From the IMG/VR virus record IMGVR_UViG_2526164646_000006: a stretch of DNA of 23,456 nt, one strand, 5' to 3'. The notes below the pieces were generated by a model, which was not told the DNA's origin, searched no databases, and was given only the letters and a program-made list of their open reading frames with translations. This document shows positions 1 to 23,456 of this stretch, in pieces; positions within the stretch are counted from its first letter, which is position 1; every line of letters begins with the position of its first letter. The position numbers and the translations under genes are program-made. Source of the stretch: a virus (lineage: Duplodnaviria > Heunggongvirae > Uroviricota > Caudoviricetes).

Positions 1-206
1 CGATAACCATACGTGGGCAGCTCTCCGATAACATGGTGTATACGGAGAAGCACATCCGTATCATCAGTGTGACGACTGCGGCGGCCATCCATCCAGTCAT
101 CGGTTCGTCTGAGAATGACGTGCAACTGCGCACGCGACACCCGGAGACAACGGCTGACTAAGCTTACTCCCCATCCCCGGGCAATAAGGGCGCGTGCGCT
201 ATCCAC
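1..206 (-). CDS. insD: IS2 insD (orfB transposase), 5' portion only, cut by window edge
   Basis: Minus-strand translation from GTG at 206 reads [38 protein letters not shown]..., -1 frame relative to insC. Confidence 0.8.
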
Positions 207-528
207 TTTTTTGCCCGTCCATATTCAACGGCTTCTTTGAGGAGTTCATTTTCCATCGTTTTCTTGCCGAGCAGGCGCTGGAGTTCTTTAATCTGCTTCA
301 TGGCGGCAGCAAGTTCAGAGGCAGGAACAACCTGTTCTCCGGCGGCCACAGCAGTAAGACTTCCTTCCTGGTATTGCTTACGCCAGAGAATAACTGGCTG
401 GCTGCTACACCATGTTGCCGGGCAACGAGGGAGACCGTCATCCCCGGTTCAAAGCTCTGCTGAACAATTGCGATCTTTTCCTGTGTGGTACGCCGTCTGC
501 GTTTCTCCGGCCCTAAGACATCAATCAT
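164..528 (-). pseudogene. insC: IS2 insC (orfA) split across two reading frames by an apparent 1-nt deletion
   Basis: ORF 298-573 carries the InsC N-terminus ([13 protein letters not shown]...ASQLF) and ORF 164-349 the C-terminus (...[12 protein letters not shown]...PGDGE) in a different frame; the junction lies near 381-396. Confidence 0.7.
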
Positions 529-616
529 CTGTTCTCCAATGACTAGTCTAAAAACTAGTATTAAGACTATCACTTAAATAAGTGATACTGGTTGTCTGGA
601 GATTCAGGGGGCCAGT

Positions 617-1216
617 CTAGACCTTTAATGCCTCATAGAAGCAACCTTTCAGATTGTTGAACTGACGCCCATTTAGCAGGCCGTGTTCAGTCAGCATGTT
701 GTGTAATTTCCATGCCGCGTCGTTTACTTCGCTGGATGACAGGGGAGGCAACTTGTAAGTTTGGCTTACAGTTTCGGCACCATGAAGCATGGCGTCGCTC
801 CGCTCTATGCCATCCAGCGCGATTCGCAGTGCCTGAATTGTGGTAGAGCTATCGTTTGGGGCTATTCCATATCGCTCGAATACAGCTAAATGGTTGCGCA
901 TAATCTCAGGCGTAAGCTCTTTGTAAGCATAAGCAAGAGGCTCTGATGCATTATCCGGCACAACCGACGCAGGCGCGGCAGCATAAACAGGAATAACGTC
1001 CGCTTGCTCTTTATTGCTTTCATCCGTTAAAGCCCAGAATAATTTCCCGGCAGGATGTTTGAAAATATAAGCAACTGGTTCTGCTTCCAGCGATGCCAGA
1101 GCAATTCGTGCCAGTTCTTCCGCTTCTTCTGCTGGCAGTTCAACGTTGCTACCAGGTCCGTATGTTTCGCGCCACTGCTTGATTGTCAGTAGTCGCTCTT
1201 TGGTCATAGTGGTCAT
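617..1216 (-). CDS. hypothetical phage protein (199 aa) whose stop codon is supplied by the first 3 nt of IS2; probably C-terminally truncated
   Basis: ATG at 1216 directly after the upstream stop with AAGGAGAG RBS; ORF ends with TAG at 617-619, which is the start of the IS2 terminal repeat. Confidence 0.6.
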   Translation of the reverse strand: MTTMTKERLLTIKQWRETYGPGSNVELPAEEAEELARIALASLEAEPVAYIFKHPAGKLFWALTDESNKEQADVIPVYAAAPASVVPDNASEPLAYAYKELTPEIMRNHLAVFERYGIAPNDSSTTIQALRIALDGIERSDAMLHGAETVSQTYKLPPLSSSEVNDAAWKLHNMLTEHGLLNGRQFNNLKGCFYEALKV

Positions 1217-1217
1217 A

Positions 1218-1946
1218 TCACTCTCCTTTGATGCGAAAGCCAGCTGCGCTTGCTGATTCTTCATATGCGCGTTTAGCAGCGTTAAGGATTGCTGCCAGTG
1301 GCGTATAGCCGCCATCCATTCGGATTGTGTTGTGGATGCCAGCCATTGTGTTGCGCAATTTTCTGTGGCTAGCAGACAGTTCTGCTATGCGCTTCTCTGC
1401 GGCTTCCAGCTTCTCGCGCATATCGTCAACGTACTCGACCAGAGAACCGCCAGCAGGAATTTCGCACTCCTCGACCAGTTGGAAGTAGATATCAGCTGCG
1501 GCCCGTGTGTTGCTATGCCTAGCGTCGCCCATCTCACCTTCACGAAGAGCATCGCGTTCGGCGGTAAGATTGGCTATTTTGCTGTCTTTGCCTTCCAGCT
1601 CAACGCGCAGCTTCCCTACCGTTAGCGCAATTTCCTCGTTCTCCTGATCGCGGCGTTTTATGTATTGCTGGTTTCTTTCCAGCTCATCCAGCAGTGCCAG
1701 CACGGTAGCTGGACTGGCTGCGGCGATGAATTCAGCATTGGCCTGCTGTTCCATTTGGAAATCTTCATCGAAACCGCTTTCAGGATGCGCTCCTTCAATT
1801 CTGCAAATGGGAATATATCCAGCAGCCTCGCGATGAATTAGGGCATCATCACCATCAAATCGGCTCTCTCCATATTCGAGCGACCACTCACCACACGTTG
1901 CTTTCTCTGCCTTGGCACGCAGTGCCTGATAGTCAATCTTGCTCAC
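1218..1946 (-). CDS. coiled-coil protein, possibly Ead/Ea22-like
   Basis: GTG at 1946 preceded by AGGAGG with 7-nt spacer; 242 codons; coiled-coil rich; family assignment from recall only. Confidence 0.5.
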   Translation of the reverse strand: MSKIDYQALRAKAEKATCGEWSLEYGESRFDGDDALIHREAAGYIPICRIEGAHPESGFDEDFQMEQQANAEFIAAASPATVLALLDELERNQQYIKRRDQENEEIALTVGKLRVELEGKDSKIANLTAERDALREGEMGDARHSNTRAAADIYFQLVEECEIPAGGSLVEYVDDMREKLEAAEKRIAELSASHRKLRNTMAGIHNTIRMDGGYTPLAAILNAAKRAYEESASAAGFRIKGE

Positions 1947-5535: not shown

Positions 5536-6504
5536 TTAGTAGGTTATTTTTGTTGCGAATACTTCGCCTTTTACGATGGCTGTTATGATATTTTTAGCAA
5601 CATCTTCTGATGCACCAACCTTGATAAGGTCAGCAAGTATTTTGTTATTTACTTCTTTCCGGTGAGCTTTATCCTTTGCTCTACGCTCTTCTTCTTCCTT
5701 GATTCTTTTTTCTTCTGCTATTCTGGCTTGCTCTTTTGCTTCAGCATCGCGACGGATTCGTTCAGCCTCCTCCTGTGCTTTTCTGCGTTCTGCTTCAATT
5801 GCTGCCTGCTTTTCTCTTTCAGCTCGTTCTGCTGCCTCTTTTGCTTCGCGCTGTGCTCGCTGCTCGGCTTCAATGCGTTCACGCTCTGCACGTTCCGCTG
5901 CGGCCTTAGCTTCTGCTTCTCGCCTTGCTGCTGCTTCAATTTCGGCTTTTGCCTTTGCTTCGGCTTCTGCTCTGGCTTTCTCTTCAGCTTCTCTTTTTAA
6001 GCGTTCTTCATGCTCTCGCTTTTCCTGCTCCGCTTTGAGTCTTGCCTCTTCTCTTTGGCGGTCAAATTCGCGATCCATCAAAATAGCTATTTCATGGTCA
6101 GACTCAATTTGCTTTGCGAGAGCTTCAGCTGCTGCCTTAGCTTCTTCTTCGGCTTTAATCCGCGCCTGTTCTTCCTCATAATCAGTAAGAGGCTGGCGCG
6201 CCTTGGCTTTCAGTTCATCAAGGCGATCGCGCACTGTCTTGCGGTTAGCATCAATTAGCTTTGGAATTTCCTTCAGTTCAGCAACAAGGTCTTTGCCAAG
6301 ACCATCGAGATATGTTTTCGTCTGCGCAACTTTATACGCCAGAGAAGCGATCTCCTTTCTGCCCTTTGCCGTTGTGATATCAGGCACAAAGGACATAACT
6401 TCACGTTCAACCTTTTGAAGGATTTCTTCAATCTGGTCGGCAGACTGAAATACAGTCATTGCATTTGCTTTTTCAATAACAACTAAATCTGTTACTTCAC
6501 TCAT
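5536..6504 (-). CDS. charged coiled-coil protein with E/A/K/R-rich low-complexity core (322 aa)
   Basis: ATG at 6504 with GGAGGA RBS; long AEAKAKAE/ERAERE repetitive segment. Confidence 0.6.
   Translation of the reverse strand: MSEVTDLVVIEKANAMTVFQSADQIEEILQKVEREVMSFVPDITTAKGRKEIASLAYKVAQTKTYLDGLGKDLVAELKEIPKLIDANRKTVRDRLDELKAKARQPLTDYEEEQARIKAEEEAKAAAEALAKQIESDHEIAILMDREFDRQREEARLKAEQEKREHEERLKREAEEKARAEAEAKAKAEIEAAARREAEAKAAAERAERERIEAEQRAQREAKEAAERAEREKQAAIEAERRKAQEEAERIRRDAEAKEQARIAEEKRIKEEEERRAKDKAHRKEVNNKILADLIKVGASEDVAKNIITAIVKGEVFATKITY
5607..6117 (-). repeat. imperfect short tandem repeats encoding the E/A/K/R-rich segment
   Basis: Recurrent gcttctgc/ttcggcttc-type units on the plus strand; produces low-complexity shadow ORFs in other frames. 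Confidence 0.5.
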
Positions 6505-7722: not shown

Positions 7723-7752
7723 GCCCTTCTTCAGGGCTTAATTTTTAAGAGC
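7723..7752 (-). promoter_or_regulatory. nutL (boxA + boxB)
   Basis: Minus strand reads GCTCTTAAAAATTAA then GCCCTGAAGAAGGGC. Confidence 0.85.
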
Positions 7753-7797
7753 CTCACCTTCATGGTGGTCAGTGCGTCCTGCTGATGGCTTAAAATT

Positions 7798-7865
7798 ACA
7801 AGAAAGATTGTATGTTGTAAACAAGAAATATTGTAAAAAGGGGCGTGAAAAACAAACTCCATTGT
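7798..7865. promoter_or_regulatory. OL operator cluster / pL region (434-type ACAA-N6-TTGT sites)
   Basis: ACAAGAAAGATTGT 7798-7811, ACAAGAAATATTGT 7821-7834, ACAAACTCCATTGT 7852-7865. Confidence 0.65.
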
Positions 7866-7914
7866 TTTTAAATGAAAAATAGTTTGTTTTTGGTTATCGA
7901 GATTGAGGTGGGGA

Positions 7915-9267
<1,353 letters not shown>

Positions 9268-9846: not shown

Positions 9847-10675
9847 TCTTGCAACCGTAACACATTTAAGGCCTTCACAACGGCCTGTGGAGCGTCGTGT
9901 GGCAGAAGTTGAAGATGGTTATACCCGTCTTGCAAATGCCCTGTATGAAGAGCTTATCGGCGCAGATTTAACGAAAAATCAGAGCAAGGTTGCCCACGCC
10001 ATATGCCGTAAAACATACGGCTACGGTAAAAAGATGGATCGCATCTCTGATAGTCAGTTAGCTCAAATTACCAGGCTGCCAAGACAGAAGGTAAACAAGG
10101 CCAAGAATGAGCTTATCGCGATGAAGGTTATCCTTCGCGAAGGCCAGCAAATCGGGCCTAACAAGAACATCGAGGAATGGCAAATAGAAGGGTGTCACTA
10201 CTCTGGTGATAATGTCACTGCATTGGTGACAAAAAGTGTCACCAAAACAGGGACACACAAAAGAAACTATTACAAAAGAAAAAGAAATAATAAAAACACT
10301 ATGTCCGAAAGTGTTCGGACGGAGTGTGAAAAATCACATGACCGTCACGAAGAAACCGACAAGGCATTCGAGGAAATATTCTGGTGTGCAGGCATGCGGA
10401 AAGCCGGGAAGAAAAACGCAGCTTCGGCATTCAGAACACAGTTCAGGGAATGGCGTAAAACTACCAGGGGTACGGCAAGCGAGTTTGCCACGATGCTGGC
10501 AGAAGACATCGCATGCAGGAATGGTAAGCAGTTCGGATTCGACAGGTTGTTACCATCGAGCTACCTGAACGGTCAACGCTGGAACGACGAGAAGCCAGAA
10601 ACTATTCAACCACAATCCAAACCATCATCCGCAATCACCGTATCGAAAACTGGCTACGTGTTTTTCGACAGGTGA
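9839..10675 (+). CDS. O: replication initiator, lambda O-like N-terminal domain with an unrelated C-terminus
   Basis: N-terminus [13 protein letters not shown]...[32 protein letters not shown] resembles lambda O; iteron-like repeats lie inside the gene. Confidence 0.85.
10190..10300. other. putative replication origin: TGTCAC-N6-GTGACA-type iterons plus AT-rich tract
   Basis: Three palindromic ~18-bp units at 10193-10256, AT-rich run 10257-10300, inverted repeat 10303-10320. Confidence 0.5.
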
Positions 10676-10782: not shown

Positions 10783-12309
10783 ATGACGCCAAGTGAACTT
10801 AGCGACCTGCTTTGGGCGCAGGTTGACAGGGTGGCTCCGCACCTGTTGCCAAACGGCAAGAAAGAGGGGCATGAGTGGGTTGCCGGTAACGTCAATGGTG
10901 ACAAGGGAAACAGCCTTAAGGTCAACCTTAGCGGCAAGAAAAAATGGGCTGATTTCGCTGAGGGAGACGGCGGTGACATGCTTGATTTGTGGATGGCATG
11001 TCGTGGAATTAACCTGCATCAGGCTATGCAGGAAGCGAAAGCATTTCTCGGTATCAAGGATGACGATCACCATTTCGATGCCAAACGTGAGAAAAAATTC
11101 TCCAGACCTGATCGCAAGAAAATCGCCCGCTACGTTACCAGAACAGAATCCCATCTTGAGTACCTGCAATCGCGTGGCATATCGCCAGAAGTCGTAAAGC
11201 GCTACGAGGTTGTCAGCGGCAAGGTGTGGAATGGAGAACGAGAACTTGATGCACTGGTGCTTCCGTACAAACGCGATGGTGAGTTGTTGCAGGTCAAGCG
11301 AATCAGCACTGAGCGCCCGGACGGGAAGAAAGTCATTATGGCAGAAGGTGATTGCGAACCTTGTCTGTTCGGATGGCAGGCTCTGGACGCTGGCGTGAGG
11401 GCGGTTGTACTTTGCGAAGGCGAAATTGATTGTATGAGCTATGCGCAATACGGCATCTCGGCGTTATCCGTGCCGTTTGGTGGAGGGAAAGGCGCTAAGC
11501 AACAGTGGATTGAGTTTGAGTACCACAACCTCGACAGGTTTGAGGAAATATTCATCTCGATGGACGTTGATGATGTTGGTCGTGAAGCCGCAAGGGAAAT
11601 CGCAAGCCGACTCGGTGAACATCGTTGCCGTCTTGTTACTCTGCCGTACAAAGACATCAACGAATGCCTGATGAACGGTGTTACCGAGGATGAAATCTGG
11701 CAGTACATCGGCACGGCATCCTACTTTGATCCTGAAGAACTCTACAGCGCGCGAGAGTTTTACCAGGACACTATCAACGCTTTCTACGGCAAGCAGCAGT
11801 ATCTGTTTAATCCACCGTGGGAATCTCTGGCAGATAAATTCCAGTTTCGTGAGGCCGAGTTGACGCTGGTCAATGGTGTGAACGGTCACGGAAAAACGGA
11901 GGTTGTCGGGCATATGGCACTTGAGGCAATGCGTCAGGGTGTGAAGACGTGCATCGCGTCACTTGAGCTGAAGCCTGGTATTCTCCTTAAGCGCCTTACC
12001 CGTCAGGCGACGTGCTGCAAGATGCCGCCAGTGCTGGAAATTGACTCTGCATTTAAATTTTATGACGAAAGACTTTGGGTGTTTGGCCTGACTGGAACGG
12101 CGAAAGCCGACAGGCTGATCGAAATATTCGACTACGCTCGCCGCCGATACGGCATCCAGTTATTCATCATCGACAGCCTGATGAAATGCGGCATAGGTGA
12201 CGATGACTATAACGGGCAGAAAGCATTTGTTGACTCGATTTGTGACTTCAAAAACAAACAAACTCCCACGTCATTCTCGTTACTCACTCCAGAAAAGGAG
12301 ATAGCGAAG
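10783..12309 (+). pseudogene. bifunctional primase-helicase (Toprim + SF4 RecA-fold helicase, T7 gp4-like), 5' portion; frameshifted near 12262-12268 and cut by IS911
   Basis: Toprim motifs CEGEID...DVDD; Walker A GVNGHGKT; Walker B LFIIDSL; downstream motif [11 protein letters not shown] is only readable in the -1 frame. Confidence 0.85.
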
Positions 12310-12350
12310 TGAAGTGGCACACTGAATTTGGCCACCTGAACAGAGGTGAT

Positions 12351-13549
<1,199 letters not shown>

Positions 13550-13557
13550 CCACTTCA

Positions 13558-13913
13558 AAGAAAAACCAACCGGGAAAATGGACGTAAAAGGCTCTGGAGC
13601 GATAACAGACCTGACAGACAACCTTTTTATCATCTGGCGTAACAAGGCTCGCGAGAGAGCGTTACAGAGAGTTCAGAGTGGTGAAAAGATGTCAGAGAAG
13701 GACGAACAGCTACTGGCATCTCCGGCATCTGTTTTGATGCTTGAAAAACAACGTAACGGCGAAGGTTGGGAAGGTGGTGTCCCGTTGTTCCTTGACGAGC
13801 AATCGCACCAGTTCCTGCAACTTGAATCAGGATCGCCTTATAGCTACATCGCCAATATGCCGAAATCGGAATATGACGAGGCGTGGCGACAGGAAAACGT
13901 GACGGAGTATTAA
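13558..13913 (+). pseudogene. primase-helicase 3' portion (helicase C-terminal motifs) downstream of IS911
   Basis: EKPTGKMDVKGSGAITDLTDNLFIIWRNK...LEKQRNGE aligns with the gp4/DnaB helicase H3/H4 region and joins the pre-insertion frame across the duplication. Confidence 0.8.
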
Positions 13914-22449: not shown

Positions 22450-23456
22450 ATGGCCGACGAAAACAGACTCAATTCCATTCTGTGTAAGTTTGACGCAGAC
22501 TGGATGGCGAGCGATGAAGCCAGAACCGAGGCGACAAATGACCTGTATTTTAGCCGAGTGTCGCAATGGGATGACTGGCTATCAAACTACACTACCCTGC
22601 AATATCGCGGACAATTCGATGTTGTTCGCCCGGTGGTCAGGAAACTGGTCGCAGAGATGCGCCGGAACCCTATCGACGTTCTCTTCCGACCCAAAGACGG
22701 TGCTAATCCTGATGCAGCCGATGTGTTGATGGGGATGTATCGTACTGATATGCGCCATAATACGGCAAAAATTGCCGTTAACGTTGGCGTTCGTGAGCAG
22801 ATAGAGTCCGGCGTTGGTGCATGGCGTCTGGTCACGCAGTACGAAGACAACGATCCAACAAGCAACAATCAGGTAATCCGACGCCTGCCAATTCATGAAG
22901 CCTGCTCACACGTCATATGGGACGCCAACAGCAAGCAGATGGATAAGAGCGACGCTAAGCACTGCACGGTGATTAACGCCTTGTCGCGCAATGGCTGGAA
23001 AGAGTTCGCAGAGGATTACGGTATTGATCCGGACACCTTGCCATCTTTCCAGAATCCGAACGATACATGGCTGTTTCCGTGGGTATCGAATGATGTCGTC
23101 TACGTCGCTGAGTATTACGAGGTCGAAGAGAAGAAAGAGAAAGTCTTCATCTACCGCGACCCGCTGACAGGTGAGCCAGTCAGCTATTACCAGCAGGATA
23201 TCAAAGACGTCATCGACGACCTGGCTAATCGTGGATTCATTAAGGCAGCAGAGCGTAAGGTGAAGCGTCGGCGTGTGTATAAGTCGATCATCACCTGCAC
23301 GCAGATACTGAAAGACCGCGAGAAGATAGCCGGAGAGCATATTCCAATCGTTCCAGTGTATGGCGAATGGTCATTCGCTGGTGACAAGGAGTGCTACGAA
23401 GGAGTGGTAAGGCTGACGAAAGACGGTCAACGCCTTCGTAACATGATCATGTCGTT
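22450..23456 (+). CDS. portal protein, P22 gp1-like, partial (runs off window end)
   Basis: Translation from ATG at 22450 ([18 protein letters not shown]...[17 protein letters not shown]) matches P22 portal N-terminal region as recalled. Confidence 0.9.

Follow-up and report, generated by a model that had tools for sequence, protein, structure and literature searches.

Does the IS2 copy at the left end of this Shigella prophage contig carry a broken insC gene, and if it does, does the break belong to the organism or only to the deposited sequence? The window, i.e. the stretch of DNA analyzed here at its full length, is the whole 23,456-bp contig AGRC01000012.1 of the assembly GCA_000281795.1 from Shigella flexneri 6603-63. 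The same assembly includes the contig AGRC01000042.1, on which the S. flexneri 6603-63 protein EJL14066.1 is encoded.

Identity and structure of the IS2 copy

The following features of the element were recognized in the window:

1-619, minus strand: left 619 bp of IS2 (IS3 family), 99.0% identical to nt 1-620 of K-12 IS2A
619, minus strand: outer end of IS2; on the inner side the element is cut off by the contig edge, at IS2 nt 620
579-619, minus strand: left inverted repeat (IRL), differing from nt 1-41 of K-12 IS2A in A>G at nt 32 only
528-526, minus strand: start codon ATG of insC, in place
206-212, minus strand: heptamer AAAAAAG (A6G) of the programmed -1 frameshift in the insC/insD overlap, intact
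1-206, minus strand: insD (orfB) codons 1-68, after which the contig ends, with a translation identical to the N-terminus of K-12 InsD

The nucleotide alignment of this copy with nt 1-620 of K-12 IS2A included five mismatches and one gap. By the ISfinder convention, elements that are more than about 95% identical are the same IS, and an IS2 query found 21,371 matching places across E. coli genomes. The five substitutions (IS2 nt 32, 42, 43, 274 and 606) are all common in Shigella-type IS2; the A>G at nt 32 of the IRL is a common IS2 polymorphism, and the C>G at nt 274, near the deletion described below, is silent. The window copy thus shares with IS2A of K-12 MG1655 (insC1/insD1, NC_000913.3 381260-382590) the IRL, the insC start, the A6G site and the InsD N-terminus, and differs from it in the five substitutions, in being one T short at nt 228-230 and in comprising the left 619 bp only.

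The insD frame follows AAAAAAG at 206-212. In IS2, programmed -1 frameshifting at the A6G motif joins two overlapping frames and yields the OrfAB transposase (PMC3219604). IS911, the best-studied model of regulation in the IS3 family, has the same gene layout, a helix-turn-helix (HTH) and a leucine zipper in OrfA, and a fusion protein made by -1 frameshifting at A6G (PMC3219604, PMC2909936). IS911 and IS2 are nevertheless distinct elements, and the window includes a separate copy of IS911 at 12310-13557. The DDE (rve) domain, the right inverted repeat and the target duplication fall outside the window but were found in sibling and orthologous IS2 copies; a 301-aa rve protein (insD) is present in two sibling copies of the same assembly (L004 and L020) and in the orthologue in CP026792.1. 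By every feature assessable in the window, positions 1-619 are, as judged from their sequence, the left end of an ordinary IS2.

The one-base deletion

The initial annotation had placed the N- and C-terminal halves of InsC in different frames overlapping at 298-349, and had taken this as consistent with a one-nucleotide deletion near 386-390. Both points agree with the open reading frames and with the alignment, and the relevant features are these:

389-390, minus strand: site of the missing base; plus-strand AA (coding TT) in the window, AAA (TTT) at IS2 nt 228-230 in the reference
298-528, minus strand: insC frame as written, 76 aa, of which 47 codons are native and 29 out of frame, ending in TGA at 298-300
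164-388, minus strand: insC codons 48-121 and stop, in a frame different from that of the N-terminus (from the ORF list and the alignment)

In the ORF list the minus-strand frame 298-573 gives 91 aa from an upstream GTG and 76 aa from the insC ATG at 528, and the C-terminal half of InsC is reported as a 61-aa ORF from a GTG at 164-349. The latter had no match in a Pfam search. It was tried as a marker of the deleted allele and rejected, since over 1,000 collection blocks contained it, and 10 sampled loci all had other lesions, namely 5' truncations, loss of a CCAG unit or divergent copies.

The alignment with the reference, which the annotation had proposed as a check, was made with K-12 IS2A and with another E. 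coli copy. The coding strand reads CAGTTA-TTCTCTGG in the window and CAGTTATTTCTCTGG in the references, and the lost T belongs to TTATTTCTC, coding for Phe47/Leu48 of insC (codon Phe47). The gap, in the plus-strand A-run at 389-390, is the only indel in the 619-bp stretch, and it is the window copy that is short. If the reference IS2 had been found to read the same at this position, the claim of a deletion would have fallen, and instead TTT was present both in the reference and in about 13,400 other IS2 copies. When one base was restored in silico, the frame gave a 121-aa InsC 100% identical to that of K-12. Chance has no bearing on the call, since the deletion is read base by base against a well-known reference.

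Two overlapping frames are genuine in IS2 (PMC3219604), and so the layout could be read as the normal orfA/orfB -1 frameshift mistaken for a lesion. This reading was rejected outright: the A6G site is intact at 206-212, the break lies 180 nt upstream of it and within insC, and it corresponds to a gap against every reference.

Predicted effect on InsC and InsCD

The DNA-binding domain of the IS2 protein is formed by helices at residues 13-26, 32-38 and 43-55/58 (Lewis et al. 2011, PMC3219604), and a leucine-zipper-like motif extends over residues 70-103 of InsC (PMC3219604). The HTH is required for binding of the IS2 ends; W49R or R50H alone abolishes transposition, which is also much reduced by L58I and by S57G (PMC3219604). 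In the window the break comes after Phe47, so that residues 49, 50, 57 and 58 are all lost from the product. The Pfam domain HTH_Tnp_1 (PF01527) accordingly matches positions 2-46 of 75 in the 76-aa product, as against 2-74 in K-12 InsC. Past the deletion the N-terminal frame enters the third frame, which is neither that of insC nor that of insD, and stops at 298-300. Since nothing downstream shares the frame of the 47 N-terminal codons, any InsCD fusion would lack its N-terminus. As written, and to judge from its reading frames, the deletion is a null allele, with InsC predicted to be cut in the HTH recognition helix and no InsCD to be made.

The annotation had further held that InsC and InsCD would be inactivated. 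This applies to the deposited sequence; for the organism it is doubtful, as is the deletion itself there, because an orthologue of the same insertion is intact. Its description of the copy as non-autonomous likewise holds at face value, neither InsC nor InsCD being encoded, with the reservation that the contig stops at IS2 nt 620, before most of insD and the right end.

One further feature lies at the end of the shifted frame:

298-301, minus strand: ATGA overlap of the shifted-frame stop TGA with the ATG of InsC Met77, read from the sequence

Any functional role of this overlap is speculative. The deleted allele might in principle be functional through ribosomal recoding, or through reinitiation at Met77 after the TGA, which would give an HTH-less, zipper-only peptide of 45 aa or, together with the A6G site, an HTH-less transposase acting as a regulator. 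The overlap itself and the recurrence of the deletion at several loci are consistent with such a role. However, no slippery motif is present between 298 and 388 and no Shine-Dalgarno sequence precedes Met77; W49R and R50H each suffice to abolish transposition, and end binding needs the HTH (PMC3219604). There is also no conservation signal, the allele being rare and occurring on wild-type haplotypes. We regard a functional allele as very improbable.

Comparison with orthologous insertions

The complete PacBio Shigella chromosome CP026792.1 has an IS2 at the same site, in the same orientation, with the same junction and in the same cut phage gene. This orthologue has TTT and encodes a 121-aa insC followed by a 301-aa insD, both intact. 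Over 3,217 bp around the IS2, TTT in place of TT is the only difference between CP026792.1 and the window; over 11,217 bp the two differ by one SNP and two homopolymer indels. A comparison of the same kind was possible for the deleted IS2 of the S. flexneri draft AFHB (L006). The orthologues in SFBU1023 and ECMA0423 share three private IS2 SNPs with it, and the deletion is the sole IS2 difference. With intact orthologues in both assessable cases, the deletion is either younger than the insertion or not real.

Distribution of the deletion

The same DNA deletion is present in three contigs of GCA_000281795.1: the window, L004 (between yiiM and kdgT) and L020 (within an IS66-family transposase gene), the latter two being on AGRC01000056.1 and AGRC01000042.1. 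The three copies differ at other positions, which shows that no single consensus was pasted three times. Two, both full-length, lie between perfect 5-bp target duplications (GGGAT and ATCCC), and one of these two insertion sites is empty in SFBU1023. The exact 76-aa product was called at five places in four assemblies, with close variants elsewhere too.

Outside this assembly, carriers of the deletion are two or three further drafts of S. flexneri (by DNA 2747-71 and SFJ17B; by protein 4343-70), S. dysenteriae 1617, E. coli HE964769.1 and CP026832.1, and by protein E. coli 99.0741. The PacBio assembly CP026832.1 represents S. dysenteriae 14 ATCC 49346 (PMC10132075); one of its IS2 copies has the identical deletion and the target duplication ATCCT. 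The deleted copy of HE964769.1 is flanked by ATCTG, and no orthologue of it was found in RefSeq E. coli. Across all assemblies, a perfect 5-bp target duplication flanks five of the full-length deleted copies (GGGAT, ATCCC, ATCCT, CTACC and ATCTG). In the draft locus AFOW01000019.1 (L008), deleted and intact IS2 copies lie side by side. Most of the assemblies with the deletion date from the 2011-13 era.

The deletion occurs on at least five IS2 SNP haplotypes, each of them identical to a wild-type haplotype. In the wild-type IS2 copies of one genome, two marker sites were found in all four combinations, which points to recombination among IS2 copies. A single old deleted allele spread by transposition was rejected as the sole explanation because of these haplotypes and because the orthologous sites are wild type.

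The exact or near-exact search did not find the deletion at any of 11,501 IS2 places in 5,426 complete E. coli genomes, and it was also absent from 1,853 plasmid IS2 places, including 161 Shigella plasmids. An exact scan of the GTDB representative genomes was negative as well, while the wild-type control pattern matched 57 times there, 23 of these in S. flexneri SFBU1023. Neither the exact scan nor the junction scans of IMG/VR and the JGI metagenomes detected the deletion. The frameshift tail was in no protein from the Logan re-assemblies of SRA runs; these include SRR060746, from the same or a near-identical strain, in which an 11.3-kb contig matches the window everywhere but at one homopolymer.

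Other frameshift alleles of insC were also present. In one of them, a CCAG unit of AGCCAGCCAG is lost (nt 219-226), 8 nt upstream of the site at 389-390. This allele was found at two loci (L018 1234-2560 and L019 1234-2560; UAUR01000003.1, one NCTC assembly), flanked by CCAGC/CCAGC (a perfect 5-bp repeat) at one locus and by CTGAG/CCGAG (4/5) at the other. Further insC frameshifts near codon 55 occur in public assemblies. Both kinds resemble the deletion in the window in being -1-type breaks that fall within the HTH recognition helix or just behind it and in leading to the same out-of-frame tail. They involve other nucleotides, and the junctions read …SYFSGV… and …WRKQYRKEV…, in contrast to …SQLFSGV… in the window.

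In addition, exact IS2 matches were obtained on 558-bp and 1,543-bp contigs (L065, L073) of the Streptosporangium vulgare and Lamprocystis purpurea assemblies. These tiny contigs are most likely E. coli-derived contamination of the drafts.

Origin of the deletion

The base is probably missing from the deposited consensus only, and not from the organism. The intact orthologue of the same insertion in CP026792.1 argues for this, and the orthologues of the AFHB copy in SFBU1023 and ECMA0423 show the same pattern. The absence of the allele from complete E. coli genomes, plasmids, GTDB representatives, IMG/VR and JGI metagenomes points in the same direction, as do the Logan proteins without the frameshift tail. 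Its presence on at least five haplotypes does not fit a single inherited allele. We infer a technical rather than a biological origin of the difference between the record, in which the deletion and its coding effect are plain, and the intact orthologue. A homopolymer-length error would have arisen in a multi-copy repeat near the end of a draft contig, and the actual element would then probably have an intact insC, like the orthologue in the sister strain.

Consensus error is favored also by other homopolymer anomalies in the drafts that carry the deletion. In their IS-rich DNA, one-base run anomalies include C5>C4 and GGGCCGG>GGCCGGG in the first 111 nt of L020, T5>T4 in a copy of AFOW01000019.1 (L008a), and four one-base shortfalls in 8 kb of the AFHB locus in comparison to a complete genome. 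The dates and the error profile suggest that the drafts in question are 454-era assemblies; for 454 data, per-site error rates above 50% have been documented at certain positions (PMC3116506).

Several observations do not fit easily with an error. A run of three T is short for a homopolymer error, and the same base was hit repeatedly, unlike what is expected of random errors. The coexistence of deleted and intact copies in AFOW01000019.1 means that the effect is not fully systematic. The unique part of the window contig appears accurate, without demonstrable error in 11 kb. The identical deletion is also present in the PacBio assembly CP026832.1, in S. dysenteriae 1617 and in E. coli HE964769.1, and in S. 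dysenteriae 14 it is most simply taken as a real mutation.

It is possible, if on the doubtful side, that the deletion is real in 6603-63 and arose after the insertion, by slippage in situ or by short-patch gene conversion from a deleted IS2 copy. The three deleted contigs of the assembly, with copies otherwise different and two of them in perfect target duplications, are in line with this, as are the site empty in SFBU1023, the duplication-flanked deleted copies in CP026832.1 and HE964769.1, the accuracy of the rest of the contig, and the marker combinations that point to recombination among IS2 copies. The CCAG deletion at two loci indicates that multi-locus defective IS2 alleles may well exist. 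However, near-identical genomes have intact orthologues, none of about 13,400 IS2 copies of modern assemblies shows the deletion, and the same drafts show other homopolymer anomalies. A real deletion would also imply that one and the same base had been hit independently in different strains, several times and very recently. If it were real, the copy would make neither InsC nor InsCD, and with intact ends it would be a non-autonomous element that intact IS2 copies could mobilize in trans.

An extension of this explanation, which we consider unlikely, is a real null allele of insC in Shigella, either recurrent or spreading by gene conversion, whose full-length non-autonomous copies are mobilized in trans. 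It is suggested by the deleted copies flanked by target duplications, one of them at a site where another strain has no insertion; in such a case the ATGA overlap might also give an HTH-less zipper peptide modulating transposition. A quasi-palindrome, looked for by eye as a template of the deletion, was unsupported: the stem is at most 5 bp (GCCAG/CTGGC) and the deletion does not improve it. Anything more exotic than an error or a real recent change has only a very small probability.

Prophage context

The insertion into the phage gene is described by two features:

617-1315, minus strand: prophage gene cut by IS2; its stop TAG is formed by the first three bases of IS2
620-624: expected 5-bp IS2 target GACCT, the right end being outside the window

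The cut gene breaks after 'EALKV', and in an uninterrupted E. coli homologue the frame runs about 95 codons further, the extension being annotated as a DUF551-domain protein. In CP026792.1 a 94-aa DUF551 remainder lies beyond the IS2. The 199-aa truncated phage protein, specific to the insertion, was found in CP026792.1 and in the re-assemblies of at least 16 SRA runs (among them SRR6249502, SRR10212902, SRR5330557 and ERR832454), which makes the insertion itself a lineage marker.

Beyond the IS2 stretch, the contig consists of a P22/Sf6-like lambdoid prophage. Its genes include the recombination genes of Erf/Rad52 type, SSB and Abc2, together with N, cI/Cro/cII, O and a primase-helicase gene split by IS911, as well as the nin-region, Q, lysis and terminase genes and, at 22451-23456, the first part of a P22-type portal gene, which the right contig edge interrupts. 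Both contig ends are inside genes, the left one in a repeat (IS2) and the right one in the portal gene. The IS911 copy is complete, with AAG/AAG flanks, and splits the primase-helicase gene into 10783-12312 and 13558-13913. Its removal in silico gave a 626-aa ORF, the length annotated in CP026792.1, and the strain of CP026792.1 therefore seems to be without the IS911 insertion.

Two homopolymers of the prophage differ between records. At 5701-5706 the window has T6 and the Logan contig of SRR060746 T5, with phage homologues supporting T6; at about 10284, in the replication gene O, the window has T5 (in frame) and CP026792.1 T6, which splits the gene. A 210-aa cI-type repressor ORF at 8316-8948 (minus strand), with HTH and Peptidase_S24 domains in the identical Logan and CP026792.1 calls, does not figure among the genes called on the GenBank contig.

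The locus AFOW01000019.1 contains three IS2 copies within 10 kb of prophage (1-410, 7733-9062 and 9910-10231). One full IS2 there is bordered by GTACC at its left and CTGGT at its right end, which do not form a target duplication; the right flank of this copy equals the left flank of the inverted neighboring copy. The arrangement of these flanking sequences suggests an IS2-mediated inversion.

Significance in Shigella

IS2 is one of the five IS types that have massively expanded in all species of Shigella (PMC7373316). Defective IS copies are commonplace in the genus, and nothing in the window is a new kind of thing: the deletion is routine and of little consequence whether it is an error or real. 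If it is an artefact, frameshifts of multi-copy IS elements in older draft genomes should not be read as pseudogenization unless sequencing reads or finished orthologues agree. If it is real, it would be a further instance of IS decay in a Shigella genome and would at most indicate that intact IS2 copies can carry defective ones with them.
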